Positions 34,716-42,207 of a stretch of 64,000 bases of DNA are shown here, piece after piece; the stretch's first letter is position 1; each line of letters opens with the position of its first letter. Made by a program: the position numbers and the translations under genes. A model generated the notes under the pieces. That model had not been told where the DNA came from and did no database searches. It saw nothing but the letters and a program-made list of their open reading frames with translations. Source of the stretch: Enterobacteria phage CHB7; the sequence record MK562504.1; one strand, written 5' to 3'.

Positions 34716-34936
34716 TGTATTTCTCCAAAAATAATAAGTGAATGGCTCTCCTGAAAAAAGACGGCGCAGAGACCGTCAAGGAGAAACCACAATGTATGCC
34801 AGAGACATACTGTATAAGTCTTCTTATAAAGTATACATCTGTAAAAAAGCCCTGTCTAAAAATACTCTTCGGTAGCGAAAGGAAGAATACTCGTAGCAGG
34901 GCGTTATTATTTTATTTTGAGAGAGAGTAAAATAAT

Positions 34937-35012
34937 TTGGAGCGTCGAAAGGGAGTTGAACCCTCATAATCCTGTTTTGCAGACAGGTACATAGCCATTT
35001 CTGTCATCGACG
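34937..35012 (-). tRNA. tRNA-Cys (GCA)
   Basis: Hand-folded cloverleaf; loop CUGCAAA; encoded CCA; U73. Confidence 0.7.
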
Positions 35013-35019
35013 CATTAAA

Positions 35020-35113
35020 TTGGAGGAAGATACCAGACTTGAACTGGTACGCCGATTTCTCGGTTACTGACAGTTTAGCAAACTGTTCCCTTACCTTTTA
35101 GGGTTAATCTTCC
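35020..35113 (-). tRNA. tRNA-Ser (GCU), long variable arm
   Basis: Anticodon stem ACAGT/ACTGT, loop TTGCTAA; variable-arm hairpin CCGA-GAAA-TCGG. Confidence 0.7.
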
Positions 35114-35115
35114 AA

Positions 35116-35850
35116 TTATTTGTTCAAGGCATCCTTCATTTCTGGAGTTGCGATTGAATCAATCACACCAGTTTTACAAGCATCATCAAACCAGTCTGGT
35201 AAGACACCTGCAAGGAAACCATTAATATTAGTTTTCAAGTAATCAGCAATTAACGCTGCTTCATCTGCAATCATCTTAGTGACCTCATTAGCATATGCAG
35301 TAATCTTAGCAATGCCCTGATTAATCGCTGTAACGGCTTGTGAGGCTAAGGAAGAGATAGTGTCTAGTCCTTTATCAATTGCATCTTTTAAGTCGCTTAG
35401 AACGCCATTCACAGTGTCTATGGAGGTGTTAATCAAATCCATAGCTTGTTGACCGTACTCTGTAGCTACTCCCATGATTCCACTAAACGGTGTACAACCA
35501 ACTTGCTCTCCTGCTGCACCCATAACGTTAGAGTAACCTTTAGCTACCTGCATACGTGATGAGAACTCATCTACAGATTTCTGACCGTATTGAGTCAGTG
35601 TGTTAGTTGTCGTTGTAGTGCTTCCAAGGCTCGTTGAGAAGCTACTTAACAAGGCTGTAGTCAAACCAGCAGCAATAAGTTTATCTTTTACTGTAGGGTC
35701 TGATACCGAGCTAATAGAGCTTACTAATGAAGTAGAAGCGGCAATTGTGCCACCAAGGATTGCTGCACCAGTAATAAGAGGGTTAGAAAACCCGTTACCG
35801 GATTTCAGGAGATTAAAAATCTCTTTACCTTGTTCTGTCATCTCTTTCAT
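35116..35850 (-). CDS. hypothetical protein
   Basis: 244 aa Ser/Thr/Ala-rich protein inside the tRNA region. Confidence 0.5.
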   Translation of the reverse strand: MKEMTEQGKEIFNLLKSGNGFSNPLITGAAILGGTIAASTSLVSSISSVSDPTVKDKLIAAGLTTALLSSFSTSLGSTTTTTNTLTQYGQKSVDEFSSRMQVAKGYSNVMGAAGEQVGCTPFSGIMGVATEYGQQAMDLINTSIDTVNGVLSDLKDAIDKGLDTISSLASQAVTAINQGIAKITAYANEVTKMIADEAALIADYLKTNINGFLAGVLPDWFDDACKTGVIDSIATPEMKDALNK

Positions 35851-35867
35851 TAAGCACCTTTTGAAAT

Positions 35868-35944
35868 TGGCGGGTTAGTGGGATTTGAACCCTCTTCTCA
35901 TGTTTTTCAGACATGCGCTTTAACCATATAAGCTACTTAACCCA
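35868..35944 (-). tRNA. tRNA-Phe (GAA)
   Basis: Loop CUGAAAA; 3' end ambiguous by about 2 nt. Confidence 0.6.
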
Positions 35945-35951
35945 TTAAATT

Positions 35952-36028
35952 TGGGGTGACCTACGGGAATCGAACCCGTATAGACCATGTTCACAGCATG
36001 GGTCATTATCCATTTATGATAAGGCCAC
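35952..36028 (-). tRNA. tRNA-His (GUG)
   Basis: Loop CUGUGAA; C73; perfect T stem. Confidence 0.65.
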
Positions 36029-36059
36029 ATGTAAGGACTCTCGTAAGAACCCTTAGAAG

Positions 36060-36135
36060 TGGCAGCAGCGTAAGGATTTGAACCTTAATCTTTCAGCTTC
36101 AGAGGCTGGAGCATTGCCAGTTATGCTACACTGCT
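36060..36135 (-). tRNA. tRNA-Gln (CUG)
   Basis: Loop CUCUGAA; G73. Confidence 0.55.
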
Positions 36136-36142
36136 ATTAATT

Positions 36143-36221
36143 TGGTACTCCATATCGGATTCGAACCGATACATAACACAGATTTTAAGTCTGGCCTCTC
36201 TGCCAATTGGAGTAATGGAGC
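36143..36221 (-). tRNA. tRNA with Leu anticodon UAA, standard length (short variable region)
   Basis: Loop CUUAAAA; A73; about 79 nt, no long variable arm. Confidence 0.5.
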
Positions 36222-36223
36222 AT

Positions 36224-36299
36224 TGGCGGGGGATGTTGGAATTGAACCAACTTCTTCGATTTCAAAGACCGAGGTTTTAACCTTGTAAACTAATCCCCT
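36224..36299 (-). tRNA. tRNA-Gln (UUG)
   Basis: Stem TCGGT/ATCGA, loop CUUUGAA; G73. Confidence 0.6.
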
Positions 36300-36307
36300 T
36301 TAAATCT

Positions 36308-36865
36308 TTACTTTCTTAGTGGATGAATAAAGAATGCCAACATAATTCTTTCCCTTGAAAATGCTCTTTCTTCTGGGACAACACTTTTAAGTTTCCAACC
36401 AACATAAATTCTCCAGTAAAATTGTTTACCAAAGATTTTAATTGACGGGATAAAAGCGAATAAACCCCAAGCATTACTGTTCCACATCAGGAGATAACCT
36501 GTCTGATTATCTTCAGGGTTAGAACTTACGTTGATATTACCTTTCCACTTAGTAACATCTTTTACATCTCTTCCTAATACATGGTAAGAGAAGTTATAAG
36601 CTTTGTTTCTCCAGAGCCATCCAACTCTCTGCATATAAACACCGAGCTTACCAATCTTTCGAATCTTAGCCCATCGTTCAACGTGACCTTTGTCACCATC
36701 AATTGGGTTGTCATAAGTTTCCATCCATCTGAATCCAAAAGGTAAGTGACCTTTCTTCTCACTGTAGAATGGAACCACAAATGGTGCTAAGATTACTGCT
36801 AAGATTGCTGCAAATGGCTCTAGCAAAGCTAGGAAAATCCATGAAGCATACTTCAAATATCTCAT
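36308..36865 (-). CDS. membrane protein, hypothetical
   Basis: ATG 36863-36865 with AGAGG RBS; N-terminal hydrophobic segment; track ORF extends upstream from TTG into tRNA-Arg. Confidence 0.5.
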   Translation of the reverse strand: MRYLKYASWIFLALLEPFAAILAVILAPFVVPFYSEKKGHLPFGFRWMETYDNPIDGDKGHVERWAKIRKIGKLGVYMQRVGWLWRNKAYNFSYHVLGRDVKDVTKWKGNINVSSNPEDNQTGYLLMWNSNAWGLFAFIPSIKIFGKQFYWRIYVGWKLKSVVPEERAFSRERIMLAFFIHPLRK

Positions 36866-36885
36866 TTTAAATAGCCTCTTTAAAT

Positions 36886-36962
36886 TGGTGCAGAATAAGG
36901 GATTCGAACCCCTAACAAACAACTTCGTAGGTTGCTGCTCTATCCGTTTGAACTAATTCTGC
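36886..36962 (-). tRNA. tRNA-Arg (ACG)
   Basis: Loop CUACGAA; perfect 7 bp acceptor GCAGAAT/ATTCTGC. Confidence 0.65.
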
Positions 36963-37124
36963 AATGTTCTTTTGAGATTCCTGTCTAGCTCTCTTCTTAT
37001 CTCTTCTGAGAAAGCGTCTACGATGGTCTGTACGCCATTTGTAGTAATCTTCCTCACCAGCGTGAGAAGCACAGCAACCACAACTTGCAATTTCAACTTT
37101 ACCGTGTCTACCATAAGGCTTCAT
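36912..37124 (-). CDS. small basic Cys-containing ORF overlapping tRNA-Arg (doubtful)
   Basis: ATG with AGGAG RBS right after the preceding tRNA; last 51 nt overlap tRNA-Arg. Confidence 0.3.
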   Translation of the reverse strand: MKPYGRHGKVEIASCGCCASHAGEEDYYKWRTDHRRRFLRRDKKRARQESQKNIAELVQTDRAATYEVVC

Positions 37125-37140
37125 AGGAATCTCCTAAAAT

Positions 37141-37218
37141 TGGTGTTCCAAGACGGATTCGAACCGTCACTAATACAAGGTTTGAGCTTGCATCCTCTGC
37201 CAATTGGGATACTGGAAC
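37141..37218 (-). tRNA. tRNA with Leu anticodon CAA, standard length (short variable region)
   Basis: Stem GCAAG/CTTGT, loop CUCAAAC; A73; D-arm similar to the UAA tRNA. Confidence 0.5.
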
Positions 37219-37220
37219 AT

Positions 37221-37295
37221 TGGTACTCGCTGAAGGACTTGAACCTTCTTCACCAACTTGTAAGGATGGGGCTTTACCATATAAACTAAGCGAGT
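37221..37295 (-). tRNA. tRNA-Val (UAC)
   Basis: Loop CUUACAA; A73. Confidence 0.6.
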
Positions 37296-37391
37296 ATGAA
37301 AAGAGGTCTGAAGTTGTGCCGCTAACTCAACTCCGTGGAATTTGTTACGGTCTTCAGTTGACTCAAGCGGTCTTTCACTCGACCTCTGAAA

Positions 37392-37468
37392 TGGTGCTGC
37401 TCACAGGACTCGAACCTGCATTTCCATCCTTACAAGGGATGTGTAATAGCCAATTATACGAAAGCAGC
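37392..37468 (-). tRNA. tRNA-Thr (UGU)
   Basis: Stem CATCC/GGATG, loop CUUGUAA; A73. Confidence 0.65.
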
Positions 37469-37474
37469 ATTGTT

Positions 37475-37549
37475 TGGAGCATCCAGAGGGAATCGAACCC
37501 TCAACCTCAGTTTGGAAGACTGTAATTTTCCCGTTTAAACTATGGATGC
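37475..37549 (-). tRNA. tRNA-Gly (UCC)
   Basis: Loop CUUCCAA; U73; perfect T stem. Confidence 0.65.
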
Positions 37550-37555
37550 ACTAAT

Positions 37556-37631
37556 TGGTGGAGAAGCAGGGAATTGAACCCTGTACTTAAGTTTGCAAAA
37601 CTTATGTTTTAACCATGTAAACTACATCCCC
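37556..37631 (-). tRNA. tRNA-Ala (UGC)
   Basis: Stem TAAGT/ACTTA, loop UUUGCAA; G3-U70 wobble pair; A73. Confidence 0.7.
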
Positions 37632-37637
37632 AATGTT

Positions 37638-37713
37638 TGGTACAGGTGGAGGGAATTGAACCCATCGTCTTACTGATTAAGAGTCAGCCGCATAACCATT
37701 TTGCTACACCTGC
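37638..37713 (-). tRNA. tRNA-Lys (CUU)
   Basis: Loop CUCUUAA; A73. Confidence 0.55.
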
Positions 37714-37720
37714 ATTAATT

Positions 37721-37798
37721 TGGTAGGAGACAAGGGATTCGAACCCTCAAACACCAACTTCTAAGGATGGTAGGTTTACCAATTACCGTCAATCTCCC
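37721..37798 (-). tRNA. tRNA with Leu anticodon UAG, standard length (short variable region)
   Basis: Loop CUUAGAA; A73; about 78 nt. Confidence 0.45.
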
Positions 37799-37866
37799 AT
37801 TAAATCTTTGTAGAGAACTGCTAAGACGCCAAAGCAACAATGGTATCAAATGCCTTAACAATTCTC

Positions 37867-37887
37867 TAAAAAGACCTAACTGGTCTT
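37867..37887 (-). terminator. hairpin downstream of nuclease gene (weak terminator)
   Basis: AAAGACC-loop-GGTCTTT followed by U-rich tail on the minus strand. Confidence 0.35.
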
Positions 37888-38026
37888 TGCATAGTCTTGT
37901 TTAATCCGGTGACTAGAACCTTTGGAGAGCTTGATATTATCTCTTCTCCGTGACACCTACTAGGTGCTTTGTTGTGCGTGTACGACAATACACGAGGGAA
38001 ACCGAACGCTGTACCAGAGCGTGGGC

Positions 38027-38368
38027 TTAAATCTTTAAGCTAAGTTCAGTCTTGGACTTGACATCTTTAGCTTTGTAGATGACGACTTTATCAAGTGGTT
38101 CAATGTAAACAGCTAAGTAATCAACTTGAGAGTTATCAAAATTCATTATTCTATTTTCATTCTTGTTAGAACGAACTCTTTTCAGTTGCACTCTCCAAAG
38201 TTCACCTCTTTTGACTGATGTTGATTTTACCTCAACAGTCTCAATCAAACCATCTTTGTGAACTAGAAAGTCATACTTTGCATTATCTGTAGCTGGTGAA
38301 TACACTTCATAACCTCTTTTGAGGAAAGCTAATTGTGTAGCAATTTCACCTACTGAACCTTTCTTCAT
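38027..38368 (-). CDS. PD-(D/E)XK nuclease-like protein embedded in tRNA cluster
   Basis: ATG 38366-38368 with AAGGTGGTGA RBS; YDFLVHKDGLIETVEVKS resembles a D...ExK nuclease core. Confidence 0.5.
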   Translation of the reverse strand: MKKGSVGEIATQLAFLKRGYEVYSPATDNAKYDFLVHKDGLIETVEVKSTSVKRGELWRVQLKRVRSNKNENRIMNFDNSQVDYLAVYIEPLDKVVIYKAKDVKSKTELSLKI

Positions 38369-38390
38369 AATCACCACCTTAAAATTATTT

Positions 38391-38477
38391 TGGCAGAGAG
38401 TGCAGGAGTTGAACCCGTACCGTTTCCAGCAGCACCAGTTTTCAAGGCTGGTTGGTCTCCGTTGACCGCCACTCTCT
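38391..38477 (-). tRNA. tRNA-Ser (UGA), long variable arm
   Basis: Loop CUUGAAA; perfect acceptor AGAGAGT/ACTCTCT; G73; 87 nt. Confidence 0.65.
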
Positions 38478-38490
38478 CCGAAACAATCTT

Positions 38491-38573
38491 TGGCATGGGA
38501 CGGAGGAATCGAACCCCTTTGAGTAAGTTTTGGAGGCTTACGCACATGCCTTAGTGTCTTAACATCGTCCCAT
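38491..38573 (-). tRNA. tRNA-Trp (CCA), atypical 83 nt with enlarged D region
   Basis: Anticodon hairpin GTAAG-(C)CUCCAAA(A)-CTTAC; perfect acceptor; G73; extra nt between acceptor and D stem. Confidence 0.45.
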
Positions 38574-38715
38574 ATATTATTTCGAAGCTTACCGTATTAT
38601 CACAACACTGTAAAGCCCCTTCTCAGATTATTTACATGTTCTGGAAAACATGAGATACAGACCACCTCCCTACAGGAAGACCCGCTTAGGTCGTCTAAGT
38701 AATCTGCTAACTATT

Positions 38716-38743
38716 TGGTAGCCAAGGTAGGAGTCGAACCTAC
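38716..38743 (-). pseudogene. tRNA 3' fragment (CCA + acceptor + T arm only)
   Basis: TGG-T-AGCCAAG followed by T arm GTAGG-AGTCGAA-CCTAC; no matching 5' acceptor strand found within 100 nt. Confidence 0.4.
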
Positions 38744-38842
38744 TTACTCTCGAAGGTAGCTAACCTTCAGTAACTTTCCGACTTTCGTACATCTGTTAAC
38801 ATGTATTCAGATGGCTTACTAGTGTTGTCTTGACCATTAAAC

Positions 38843-38919
38843 TGGCACACCCTACAGGACTCGAACCTGTAACTCAGTGCTTAGAAGGCACTTGCTCTAT
38901 CCAATTGAACTAAGGGTGC
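38843..38919 (-). tRNA. tRNA-Arg (UCU)
   Basis: Loop CUUCUAA; G73. Confidence 0.65.
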
Positions 38920-39170
38920 ATTCTTATCTTTAAAGGCTCTCTTAGAAAACCCTTAAAGATGCCCACATTATTAATCATACCGTGGGCGAGTACGCCAAAT
39001 TCTTTGATGAGGGGTTGGAAGACCTCACTGGTGTTTAGCCTATTAAGCTACTGCCAGAAAAACATTATCGTTTGCATTTATTTTAGTTTGCAAAAATAGA
39101 CGCTACGCTAACGAAAACTAAGGTTACTATAAAGTGGTCACATCTGAATGTCAACAACTTTATCGAATTT

Positions 39171-39246
39171 GGTAGTGGTAGCAGGAATCGAACCTGCGAT
39201 GTTCGGTTATCAGCCGAGTGTTATGACCGTCTTAACTATACCACCA
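39171..39246 (-). tRNA. tRNA-Ile (GAU)
   Basis: Loop CUGAUAA; A73. Confidence 0.6.
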
Positions 39247-39248
39247 TT

Positions 39249-39325
39249 GGAGGTTCAGATGGGATTCGAACCCACATTCATAGGGCTTATGAAACCCTTG
39301 CATTACCTTATCTGCGACTGAACCA
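39249..39325 (-). tRNA. tRNA with CAU anticodon (Met or Ile2)
   Basis: Stem AGGGT/GCCCT, loop UUCAUAA; U73. Confidence 0.55.
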
Positions 39326-39403
39326 TAATAAGTTGCCCTTTGGAGAAGAACTATTGAGTGGGTGTTTCCAGCCGCGCAGGTGTTCTTCAGTTAAGGGCTA
39401 ATT

Positions 39404-39479
39404 TGGTAGGAGTGGAGGGATTCGAACCCTTCGCCTGTCAGATTAAAAGTCTGCCGCATCACCATTCTGCTACACTCCC
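39404..39479 (-). tRNA. tRNA-Lys (UUU)
   Basis: Loop CUUUUAA; A73. Confidence 0.6.
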
Positions 39480-39735
39480 ATTGAATCATCTTTGCAGTAA
39501 CCTACGCAAACCTTGCTAAAGGGTTTGTAGAGTCATTTCCTATTAAGCTAATCTAGAATCATGCTAAGGAAATTCATCGGCACTCATGGGACGACATTTA
39601 GCTCCATAAGTCACTGCAAAGAGGATTACCAGACCGTTGTTTATCTTAAGTGCTCCCATTACACCAACACGCCGTAACGTGTGAAGGAATCGAACCTTCG
39701 CCTTTTCTTTACCAGAGAAATAGATTGTTTTATAC

Positions 39736-39765
39736 TTGCTGTAAACGGTCTTCTGTAAATTTGTT
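39736..39765. repeat. inter-tRNA spacer repeat (TGCTGTAAACGGTCTTCTG family), copy 1
   Basis: Same about 20 nt word recurs at 40281-40306 and 40440-40466; CCAGACC word recurs near 39639, 39787, 40238, 40395. Confidence 0.6.
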
Positions 39766-39906
39766 GAGCCAGACCAAGTTTTAAATTTTTCAAAATTAAA
39801 TTGGCTTGAAATTTTTTAAGTTGGCTTGCTGAATTTGGTCTTCTGCTCCTTTAAAGAACACTCGTAAGAACTCTTTAAGGGAGGGGCTAAAAAGCCCTCT
39901 CAAATT

Positions 39907-39984
39907 TGGCGGTTACGAAGGGATTCGAACCCTCATCATCTCCCGTGACAGGGGAGTATTTTAACCAGATTAAACTACATAACC
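39907..39984 (-). tRNA. tRNA-Asp (GUC)
   Basis: Perfect stem CTCCC/GGGAG, loop CUGUCAC; G73. Confidence 0.7.
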
Positions 39985-39990
39985 TTTATT

Positions 39991-40078
39991 TGGTGCGCCG
40001 TGAAGGAGTCGAACCTACCGAGTCATAATGACAAGTGATTTACAGTCACCACCGCTTCCATCTACGGGATAACGACGC
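39991..40078 (-). tRNA. tRNA-Tyr (GUA), long variable arm
   Basis: Loop CUGUAAA; 88 nt; A73. Confidence 0.6.
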
Positions 40079-40148
40079 ATTTTATTCCATTCAGGCTAAG
40101 GACTTGCACCTTACAAATCGGTGAGCATTACGCTTCTCTCCCAAATCT

Positions 40149-40225
40149 TGGCGGTGAGTTAGGGATTCGAACCCTATGCCATTCGGTTAACAGCCGACCG
40201 CACATGCCTTATGTGCTTCCTCACC
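40149..40225 (-). tRNA. tRNA-Asn (GUU)
   Basis: Loop CUGUUAA; G73; perfect T stem. Confidence 0.65.
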
Positions 40226-40306
40226 ATGTTTAGTATTGCCAGACCGTATCTTTTCATTTTTCCTATAAAAATTTTTGAGATTGCTGTAAACGGTCTTCTG
40301 CAAATT

Positions 40307-40383
40307 TGGAGGCGGGTGCAGGAGTCGAACCTGCCGATACCATGCTAATGAGACATGTGAGACGCCCTTTCTCTATACCCGCG
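40307..40383 (-). tRNA. tRNA with CAU anticodon, unpaired 1-72 (C-C)
   Basis: Loop CUCAUUA; first acceptor pair is a C-C mismatch; U73. Confidence 0.5.
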
Positions 40384-40466
40384 AACTTTTATGACCAGAC
40401 CAAACTTTTAAGTTTTCTATGCGCGAAAAGTAAAGTTGTTTGCTGTACTTGGTCTTCTGTCAAATT

Positions 40467-40541
40467 TGGAGTCGTAGACGGGATTCGAACCCGCGAGCAA
40501 CTGATTGAAGGTCAGGTGGCTAACCATTTGCCTTCTACGAC
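40467..40541 (-). tRNA. tRNA-Glu (UUC), tentative
   Basis: Stem CTGA/TCAG, loop CCUUCAA (C at position 33 is unusual); perfect acceptor. Confidence 0.45.
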
Positions 40542-40548
40542 ATTAATT

Positions 40549-40625
40549 TGGTCTCCGTTGAAGGGATTGAACCTTCGACCTCACCGCCCCAAACGGCGCA
40601 CTCTACCAAACTGAGCTAAACGGAG
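40549..40625 (-). tRNA. tRNA-Pro (UGG)
   Basis: Loop UUUGGGG; C1-G72; A73; perfect acceptor. Confidence 0.7.
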
Positions 40626-40791: not shown

Positions 40792-42207
40792 TTACCAGAT
40801 GTAACGGTCAATCATTACTGCTTTGAGCATTACGCTGATTGGGTCAAACTTCTCACCACCAAGCAGAGCTTTTAAAGTGGCTGGAGAGAACCCTGATACC
40901 ATTGCTACCCCATTATCCTTAACAGACACTTCGCAAGTACCATTACGGTTTGCTAAGTACCAGAATACCAGTTGTGGCATTTCGTATCCAGCTTTTTCAT
41001 ACTTACTGCGAATTGCTTCGAAGTTTGTATGGCCATCTGCACCGTCAACCTGATTGAACTCCATATCAGAGAAGATAATAAGCTTACTTGGCATTGCTGC
41101 CTGAGTCAAGCCATTTCTTACACCGATTTCAAGAATACGGTCAAATGCTGCTTGCAGGTTTGTTGAACCATACTCAACCTTGTTCATTACCTGACGCATA
41201 CGAGTCTGCAAATCACCACTCAGAGTAATAAAGTGAGGTCTTGTGGAGTAAACCATTAACTCATCTTTAAAGCACCCTGTATTGCGTTCTGAGACGTATA
41301 ACGCCAAAGACAGGCCAATATCAAGAGCAGTTACAGAACCAAATGTCTGCCAAGTCATAGACGCTGATACATCTGACATACACAGAATGTTTTCACCTTC
41401 TGCCATCCAGTTTGGTAATGCTTTCCACTGTTCGTTTGCAACACTTGCTTTACCATGATTAACGGACTTCAGAATATCGTATGGGTACACAGCACCAGCA
41501 TTAATCTTGGCCTCACCTTTGGATAAAGCTTCAACGTAAGCTGCATAACGTTCACCGTCTTTCTTGCTGAACAGCTTTTGATAACGTGCAGCAGCCAGTG
41601 AAGGAATCTTGCTGTAGTCAATCTCACCAAAGTTATTTGTAGAGATTTTCTGTTCAACGGTATCAGACAAAGCTGATAACAGTGTACGGTATTCTTTCTC
41701 ACTCAGGCTTGCAAACTTACAGAAACGTTTTACAAACTGTTTGTGTCGTGGTTTTACTCGTGGTAACCACTTAGCCGCTAAACCTGCTGTATCAGGGTCT
41801 AACAAGGCTGCTTCTAAATGCTTGAAAGCATCTGTCTCATAACGAGTACCTACGAAGATTTTGAAGTCATCGAAACGACCTAATTCAGAAATCTTATCCA
41901 TGATACGAAGAACTTGGAAAGAATCCAGAATGTTATCTTCGATTGCTTGTAAGAGGACAGTTCGGAAAGCTTTACGCTCACCCATACCTTCTCGTACATC
42001 TCGCATATGCAGTAAAATACGAACTGCTACATCAACATCCTCACGCAAAGCTTTGTAGAACAAGTCTGGGAGAATCTCTACATTGCCACGGCTTGAGCCA
42101 GCAGCTTTATAGAAGTCTACCAAGGCAGACATTGATGATGTATGGTTAACAGCACCATTTTCAGTTCGCCCTGCATGGAGGTGCGAATGTTTAAATAAAT
42201 CGCTCAT
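40792..42207 (-). CDS. vWA-domain protein with MIDAS motif (DUF2828/TROVE-like?)
   Basis: 471 aa; DxSxS MIDAS motif in LCMSDVSASM; N-terminal RTENGAV segment; purine-rich RBS. Confidence 0.6.
   Translation of the reverse strand: MSDLFKHSHLHAGRTENGAVNHTSSMSALVDFYKAAGSSRGNVEILPDLFYKALREDVDVAVRILLHMRDVREGMGERKAFRTVLLQAIEDNILDSFQVLRIMDKISELGRFDDFKIFVGTRYETDAFKHLEAALLDPDTAGLAAKWLPRVKPRHKQFVKRFCKFASLSEKEYRTLLSALSDTVEQKISTNNFGEIDYSKIPSLAAARYQKLFSKKDGERYAAYVEALSKGEAKINAGAVYPYDILKSVNHGKASVANEQWKALPNWMAEGENILCMSDVSASMTWQTFGSVTALDIGLSLALYVSERNTGCFKDELMVYSTRPHFITLSGDLQTRMRQVMNKVEYGSTNLQAAFDRILEIGVRNGLTQAAMPSKLIIFSDMEFNQVDGADGHTNFEAIRSKYEKAGYEMPQLVFWYLANRNGTCEVSVKDNGVAMVSGFSPATLKALLGGEKFDPISVMLKAVMIDRYIW

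Follow-up and report, generated by a model that had tools for sequence, protein, structure and literature searches.

Layout of the ORF in the tRNA array

The window, that is, the whole 64,000-nt stretch of Enterobacteria phage CHB7 (MK562504.1) analyzed here, carries an array of 24 tRNA genes at 40625..34938, all features of which are on the minus strand. A small ORF in this array starts just after tRNA-Leu(CAA) and runs into tRNA-Arg(ACG). The window comes from a Felix O1-like phage (Ounavirinae, genus Suspvirus); its 1-kb region is 98.8% identical to that of Escherichia phage SUSP2 (Ounavirinae, Suspvirus) and matches about 250 records of Felix O1-like phages. The features of the locus, in the direction of transcription, are as follows.

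37141..37218, minus strand: tRNA-Leu(CAA), the upstream neighbor (ARAGORN; Rfam RF00005, 44 bits)
37140..37136, minus strand: leader AUUUU, between tRNA-Leu(CAA) and AGGAG
37131..37135, minus strand: Shine-Dalgarno (SD) sequence AGGAG, 6 nt upstream of the ATG
36912..37124, minus strand: whole ORF, 70 aa plus UAG; phrog_10765; named "hypothetical protein" in SUSP2, mistaenkt, and others
36963..37124, minus strand: codons 1-54, conserved and maintained by selection, matching the whole length of stand-alone homologues of 60-63 aa
36915..36962, minus strand: codons 55-70, AELVQTDRAATYEVVC, encoded by tRNA-Arg nucleotides 1-48
36912..36914, minus strand: stop codon UAG, tRNA-Arg nucleotides 49-51, with one base at the end of the variable loop and two at the start of the T stem
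36886..36962, minus strand: tRNA-Arg(ACG) (ARAGORN; Rfam tRNA, 59.6 bits)
36308..36865, minus strand: gene of a DUF7338 membrane protein, 185 aa (Pfam PF24027, E = 9e-62; pN/pS 0.069)

An earlier sequence-only reading had placed a 70-aa ORF at 36912-37124, with an AGGAG 6 nt before its start at the 3ʹ end of the preceding tRNA. Both statements were confirmed, the ORF being on the minus strand: the CCA end of tRNA-Leu(CAA) is 5 nt ahead of the SD, and a 6-nt spacer, AUUCCU, separates AGGAG from the ATG at 37124. The AGGAG showed no variation across 24 copies of the 70- and 80-aa alleles described below, and it reads A/GGGAG in a 35-aa allele. At the downstream end, the ORF and tRNA-Arg(ACG) share 51 nt, with the first nucleotide of the tRNA (G, 36962) serving as the first base of codon 55. 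The overlap reported earlier is thus present, but the figure of 17 codons given for it counts the stop, there being 16 sense codons. SUSP2, mistaenkt, EcSzw-2, and other records already list the ORF as a hypothetical protein whose gene overlaps tRNA-Arg, and it was left without annotation in the HP1, KMM4, KMM2, and Sf14 records. No degenerate tRNA was detected in the Leu-Arg spacer by ARAGORN or Rfam, and an Rfam scan of 36200-38100 at E ≤ 1 returned only tRNAs and chance matches.

The DUF7338 gene has its own ribosome-binding site, AAGAGG, just after the CCA of tRNA-Arg, and this placement indicates that protein genes are interleaved with tRNAs in the array. Two transmembrane segments are predicted for the DUF7338 protein in the AYO145A annotation, and it is called a "holin" in HP1 without visible support. 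Sf14 and Silverhawkium do not have the DUF7338 gene, and the moogleviruses have an additional 75-aa ORF after tRNA-Arg. The stretch from tRNA-Leu(CAA) through tRNA-Arg(ACG) to DUF7338, 36308-37218, is an indel hot spot of the Ounavirinae.

Three further elements of the array and its border were observed. The 96-nt gap between tRNA-Thr(TGT) and tRNA-Val(TAC), at 37296-37391 on the minus strand, contains no ORF and had no Rfam match; it folds as one long irregular hairpin (-31.4 kcal/mol, z = -3.7), as good a fold being reached by 1 of 200 shuffles, and a gap of 95-99 nt occurs at this place in SUSP2, D1-2, HP1, and AYO145A. By analogy with species I/II of the T4 tRNA cluster, it may give rise to a stable small RNA. 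A 113-aa PD-(D/E)XK endonuclease (PF11645, E = 3e-17) is encoded inside the array at 38027-38368 on the minus strand, just downstream of tRNA-Ser(TGA) at 38391-38477, and a longer GTG-initiated frame of this gene crosses that tRNA. It may be a nuclease of the homing type, responsible for the mosaic of gains and losses in the array. Directly upstream of the array, at 40792-42207 on the minus strand, lies the gene of a 471-aa protein with DUF2828 and DUF7788 domains, and two promoter-like sites and a hairpin are present between this gene and the first tRNA.

Selection on codons 1-54

A tblastn search recovered the frame, unbroken and with 88-98% amino-acid identity, from 41 phage records of GenBank. 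The chance of a 70-codon open frame is about 0.01 at the local base composition, and on these comparisons the conservation of the frame is a stronger argument against chance than the length of the ORF. The sequence-only reading had proposed a comparison of synonymous with non-synonymous change in related phages as a check, and this comparison gave an NG86 pN/pS of 0.158 for codons 1-54 in the ORF frame versus 2.67 and 0.59 in the other two frames. The neighboring DUF7338 gene, with a pN/pS of 0.069, was used as the control of the selection test. Among 24 copies (16 haplotypes), the minimum numbers of changes at the three codon positions of codons 1-54 were 4/4/20 (binomial p = 4e-5), and there were 17 synonymous versus 10 non-synonymous events, while synonymous sites make up only 19% (p = 8e-7). 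Moreover, the Sf14 copy carries an in-frame 3-nt deletion, and both the ATG and the SD are present in every copy among the relatives.

Judging from this pattern of change, codons 1-54 are real protein-coding sequence, under purifying selection in the ORF frame only. Two options had been left by the sequence-only reading, a spurious ORF despite the SD or a short peptide translated from the tRNA precursor. For codons 1-54, the first is rejected by the frame-specific selection, the Sf14 in-frame deletion, and the existence of stand-alone homologues. The second is favored over it, with the amendment that the overlap would be a deletion scar and not designed. Our literature search found no paper on this ORF and no Ribo-seq, proteomic, or expression data for Suspvirus or Mooglevirus.

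A small Cys3His protein family

The 70-aa protein matched the phrog_10765 profile over positions 1-70 of 70 (E = 3e-50). This was the sole strong match in PHROGs, to a family of no assigned function, and weak matches to phrog_23070, phrog_14783, and phrog_20629 had E-values of 1e-3 or worse. Searches of Pfam and NCBIfam with the 70-aa protein returned no domain, and a sequence search of the PDB returned no relative, the top match having an E-value of 0.13. When the 80-aa protein was used as the query in an exhaustive search of 1.8 billion representative proteins, two remote homologues were detected, P0005 (63 aa, E = 5e-7) and P0006 (60 aa, E = 3.5e-6), with 43-44% identity over query residues 1-57/58. 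A profile search added the homologues P0008 (63 aa) and P0009. At the protein level, the homologues in unrelated phages share 38-44% identity. Each is encoded by a small gene of its own (60-63 aa), on a contig that has no tRNA, and in one case the neighbor is the terminase of a phage of 76.7 kb whose portal is of the SU10 type. Since the homologues stand alone at 60-63 aa, the natural size of the protein would be about 55-63 aa.

The remote 60-63-aa proteins match phrog_10765 at positions 1 to ~56, and the 80-aa form matches positions 1-56 only. The profile appears to have been built from the 70-aa form fused to the tRNA, in which case its positions ~57-70, the last ~14, would model tRNA-Arg sequence.

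The motifs MKPxGxxGKxExAxCGCCxxH and ARQ are common to the homologues. In alignment A1, which comprises the window protein together with P0001 and P0003-P0006, 18 residues are invariant: M1, K2, P3, G5, G8, K9, E11, A13, C15, G16, C17, C18, H21, R31, K43, A46, R47, and Q48. P0008 and P0009 fit this core by eye, except for the change of H21 to Y in P0008. The following segment is a candidate metal-binding cluster, in which C15, G16, C17, C18, and H21 are unchanged throughout alignment A1.

37062..37082, minus strand: codons 15-21, C-G-C-C-A-S-H (alignment A1)

The product had been described as rich in Cys and in Arg/Lys. The second part agrees with a K+R content of 16/70 and a pI of 9.4; as to the first, there are only four cysteines (C15, C17, C18, and C70), and C70 is tRNA-encoded and either C or S in relatives. 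The core encoded by codons 1-54 is more basic (pI 9.95) and the tail AELVQTDRAATYEVVC is acidic (pI 4.1). In a single-sequence AlphaFold2 model (pLDDT 71.5), the N-terminus is disordered and residues 24-69 form a single helix. Our guess, from composition only, is that the CxCCxxH motif and the long basic helix belong to a metal-binding protein that contacts nucleic acid or a host factor. This proposed function is weakly founded because there is no Pfam, NCBIfam, or PDB relative and the model is a lone helix.

Two other assignments were tried and rejected. For a lipoprotein with the lipobox I-A-S-C at residues 12-15, no hydrophobic stretch precedes C15 (KVEIAS), and position -1 is K or P in homologues (MAKC, IAPC). 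For a known zinc-finger or zinc-knuckle family, no Pfam, NCBIfam, or PDB sequence match was obtained.

The overlapped codons follow the tRNA

The part of the ORF inside tRNA-Arg(ACG) behaves differently from codons 1-54. In codons 55-70, the changes by codon position were 3/3/2 and pN/pS was 0.85, and in the same selection test no coding signature was seen, with only 8 changes and little power. The tRNA reading of the same nucleotides is strictly kept: among 19 distinct relatives, 399 of 399 pair cells of tRNA-Arg(ACG) are standard pairs. Variation is confined to seven pairs, three of which (5-69, 31-41, and 52-64) have changed on both sides. The tRNA scores 59.6 bits with Rfam RF00005 against a gathering threshold of 29, and by these measures it is intact and fully functional in form. 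The substitutions found in codons 55-70 are those that the cloverleaf permits. As far as substitutions can tell, tRNA rules and not protein rules govern codons 55-70, and it is the T stem that holds the stop codon of the ORF in place.

Spacer alleles and a proposed 82-nt deletion

The spacer between tRNA-Leu(CAA) and tRNA-Arg(ACG) was surveyed in about 249 Ounavirinae records, and five states were distinguished. The counts for states 4 and 5 are approximate, being obtained by subtraction from coverage classes.

State 1: 80-aa ORF with its own tail (...KNIAKDFRESVLSRRDTNEELKLYGVLIG) and UAA 1 nt before tRNA-Arg; 1 record (Silverhawkium) and at least 10 further contigs
State 2: the 70-aa fused form of the window; 40 records
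State 3: 35-aa ORF (phrog_13848), overlapping tRNA-Arg by 10 nt; 34 records of Felixounavirus, FO1a and D1-2 among them
State 4: no ORF, only AUUUU between the tRNAs; ~108 records
State 5: neither ORF nor tRNA-Arg(ACG); ~66 records

On this survey, the gene is dispensable in most relatives. The 35-aa Felixounavirus ORF had a pN/pS of 0.50 in frame versus 0.65-0.87 out of frame, which is weak evidence of selection on it.

In DNA alignment A2, the 80-aa and 70-aa alleles differ by a single clean gap of 82 nt between the imperfect direct repeats ATATTGC/ATAATGC. The junction in the window, read against the Silverhawkium sequence, is the following.

36960..36966, minus strand: proposed deletion junction ...AAC AUU/GCA GAA... 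(alignment A2; the slash marks the junction)

As 82 is not divisible by three, the frame that the ORF takes through tRNA-Arg would be accidental. In the history that we propose, the ancestor would have been 80-aa-like, with its own tail and a UAA 1 nt before tRNA-Arg. In the lineage of the window, a deletion of 82 nt between the short imperfect repeats would have removed the tail and the stop, giving state 2, after which the frame would run through the first 48 nt of tRNA-Arg to the UAG in the variable loop and T stem. State 3 would have arisen from an 80-aa-like ancestor via an internal in-frame deletion, and states 4 and 5 via complete loss. The 16 tRNA-encoded residues would then be a by-product, because the deletion took away the tail and stop of the ORF itself and the cloverleaf dictates the sequence that replaced them. 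Overall, the comparisons make it likely that Felix O1-like phages have in this ORF a real small accessory gene, housed in the tRNA array and coding for a basic protein of about 55-60 aa, and that the overlap with tRNA-Arg is a scar left by a deletion of 82 nt.

Proposed translation from the tRNA precursor

The signals that would govern expression of the ORF are listed below, the promoter and terminator being consensus matches only.

39126..39154, minus strand: sigma-70-like promoter match TTGACA-17-TATAGT, the nearest strong one upstream
34760..34777, minus strand: terminator-like hairpin with U-run, the first convincing one downstream, past the tRNA array
37125..37133, minus strand: 5ʹ arm of a predicted stem, GAGAUUCCU, covering most of the SD
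36974..36982, minus strand: 3ʹ arm of the predicted stem, AGGAAUCUC, codons Q48-E49-S50 plus 1 nt

In a consensus scan, no terminator-like site was found on the minus strand between the promoter match at 39154..39126 and the ORF. The one minus-strand match ahead of the hairpin at 34777..34760 lies at 35793..35780, inside the DUF7217 gene, and consists of a weak stem of 5 pairs followed by a poor U tail. Considering that no convincing terminator follows the promoter match until 34777..34760, the ORF is most likely part of a tRNA precursor.

For the 70-aa allele as well as the 80-aa allele, the predicted MFE and centroid structures contain a perfect 9-bp stem involving the SD, and both arms of this stem are invariant among relatives. 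A perfect duplex of at least 9 bp overlapping the SD occurred in 3 of 5000 dinucleotide shuffles (0.0006), the stem having been noticed post hoc. With these elements, a ribosome would load during RNA synthesis, following the polymerase and entering the still-unfolded 5ʹ half of tRNA-Arg, and this early ribosome would end at the UAG inside the tRNA. Afterwards, the 9-bp stem would close the SD and limit later initiation, tRNA-Arg would fold, and RNase P would cut at 36963/36962. The full 70-aa product would be possible only as long as RNase P has yet to cut the RNA at the start of tRNA-Arg. Since the cut lies upstream of the UAG, the message remaining after it would have no stop codon.

The ratio of 40 to 1 for the fused allele in isolates leaves room for a selective advantage of the fusion, in which the run-in would couple translation to maturation of tRNA-Arg. 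RNase P would then make a non-stop mRNA, the race between ribosome and RNase P would set the dose of protein, and trans-translation would clear late products. Alternatively, passage of the ribosome would delay the folding and release of tRNA-Arg; combined with the SD-sequestering stem, the fusion would permit about one translation round per transcript. The prevalence is consistent with such an advantage, as the fused allele makes up 40 of the 41 GenBank records with the gene, in two genera, and its protein cluster has 80 member sequences versus 2 and 4 in the 80-aa clusters, but it may come from hitch-hiking and recombination. The SD/anti-SD stem is improbable by chance (0.0006, for a stem noticed post hoc) and is predicted in both alleles, and a like logic has been proposed for T4 segB, yet the stop of the 80-aa form is already 1 nt from the RNase P site, so any coupling would not originate with the fusion. 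In addition, the tail shows no protein-level constraint, and most relatives have no ORF here at all. We consider an adaptive fusion, in each of these versions, unlikely.

A more elaborate proposal, which we hold to be speculative and rather improbable, treats the fused allele as a translation/processing switch. Protein would be made in a pioneer round before the SD closes and RNase P removes the last 17 codons, later ribosomes would be rescued on the stop-less message, and a single RNA would be split between the Cys3His protein and the release of tRNA-Arg. The protein itself may have a part in tRNA biology, such as the protection of phage tRNAs or a defense against anticodon nucleases of the host, and if so, this would explain its place in the array.

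Direction of the change

The scar reading depends on the 82-nt difference being a deletion. By parsimony, we infer a deletion and not an insertion. Were the 70-aa fused form ancestral instead, the 80-aa form would have gained 82 nt of the 35-aa ORF (phrog_13848), whether inserted or captured through recombination, the segment concerned being homologous to that ORF at the DNA level (alignment A2). The 82-nt tail segment is 100% identical in all six 80-aa copies and their N-terminal halves differ, which would fit a recently spread segment; it also shows that the locus recombines, which makes an argument from a simple tree less secure, and the region is a hot spot of recombination and indels. However, the identity between the tail and the Felixounavirus ORF is only moderate (the 80-aa tail matched the phrog_13848 profile with E = 5.6e-4, the 35-aa ORF itself with E = 4e-18), which argues against a recent copy from a known donor. 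Through this homology to phrog_13848, the tail segment is seen to border tRNA-Arg in two genera. Residues 50-58 of the 80-aa protein can be aligned with SNKSIAKKF, the N-terminus of the 35-aa ORF, and three of four remote stand-alone homologues share I54-A55 with the 80-aa protein; both observations fit the loss of an internal stretch, in frame, from an ancestor like the 80-aa form. Imperfect repeats such as those at the flanks, moreover, are typical of slippage deletions. An ancestral 70-aa form is, in our judgment, improbable.

That the ORF is untranslated, with the 178-nt spacer serving as a structured non-coding RNA or as a processing spacer of the tRNA precursor and with the frame and AGGAG incidental, is very improbable: the predicted folding of the spacer is somewhat more stable than that of shuffled sequences (z = -2.2 and -2.8) and phage tRNA clusters carry stable RNAs such as T4 species I/II (PMC2330249), but the third-position bias and the pN/pS of 0.16 are specific to the ORF frame, homologues at 38-44% identity occur in unrelated phages without tRNAs, Sf14 has lost a codon in frame, the SD and start are kept in every copy, and there is no Rfam match to the spacer.

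Comparison with known systems

The sequence-only reading had called translation from a tRNA precursor unusual. This was overstated, as protein genes within phage tRNA clusters are known, for example T4 segB, located ahead of tRNA-Arg in the tRNA cluster of T4 (Brok-Volchanskaya et al. 2008, PMC2330249). The SD of segB is predicted to lie in a hairpin, the gene has no promoter of its own close by, and the authors suggest that maturation of tRNA-Arg cuts between its last sense codon and the stop (PMC2330249). The ORF of the window resembles segB in being a tRNA-cluster ORF whose stop does not precede the 5ʹ processing site of the tRNA that follows, here at tRNA-Arg nucleotides 49-51, so that tRNA processing and complete translation would compete. 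The two differ in that segB encodes a 221-aa GIY-YIG homing endonuclease, whereas the present protein has 70 aa and no nuclease domain and is not homologous; in segB only the stop lies past the cleavage site, whereas here 16 sense codons and the stop do. Here, in addition, an allele without overlap exists, and the deletion origin can be read from relatives.

The 35-aa ORF of phrog_13848 occupies the same Leu-Arg spacer with the same placement of AGGAG and also enters tRNA-Arg, by 10 nt; the difference is that the window does not have the segment it represents, this being the deleted one. In E. coli, the tRNA operons thrU-tyrU-glyT-thrT-tufB and secG-leuU also carry protein genes. The tyrT transcript of E. 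coli includes tpr, which encodes a small, very basic "protamine-like" protein (PMC3141248). Operons of the tyrT-tpr type are alike in that a protein is translated from a tRNA-precursor transcript, and differ in that the coding sequence does not overlap a tRNA.

Significance

Current understanding is not overturned by this locus; the arrangement has a precedent in T4 segB, and its interest is modest, as a tidy evolutionary example. For annotation, two cautions follow: the overlap with tRNA-Arg is no ground for discarding the ORF, as several GenBank records do, and the last ~14 positions of phrog_10765 would be tRNA sequence and not a signal of the protein family. The comparison also defines a tiny conserved Cys3His protein family that is present in unrelated phages as well. 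On the reading that we favor, the locus is a clean natural case in which a coding sequence would have gained a C-terminus and a stop codon from a functional tRNA gene via a small deletion, and every intermediate or alternative state is still found in sequenced relatives: the 80-aa ORF, its fused 70-aa counterpart, the 35-aa remnant, a spacer with no ORF, and the absence of the tRNA. It may thereby offer a small model for how the ribosome and RNase P share one precursor RNA.
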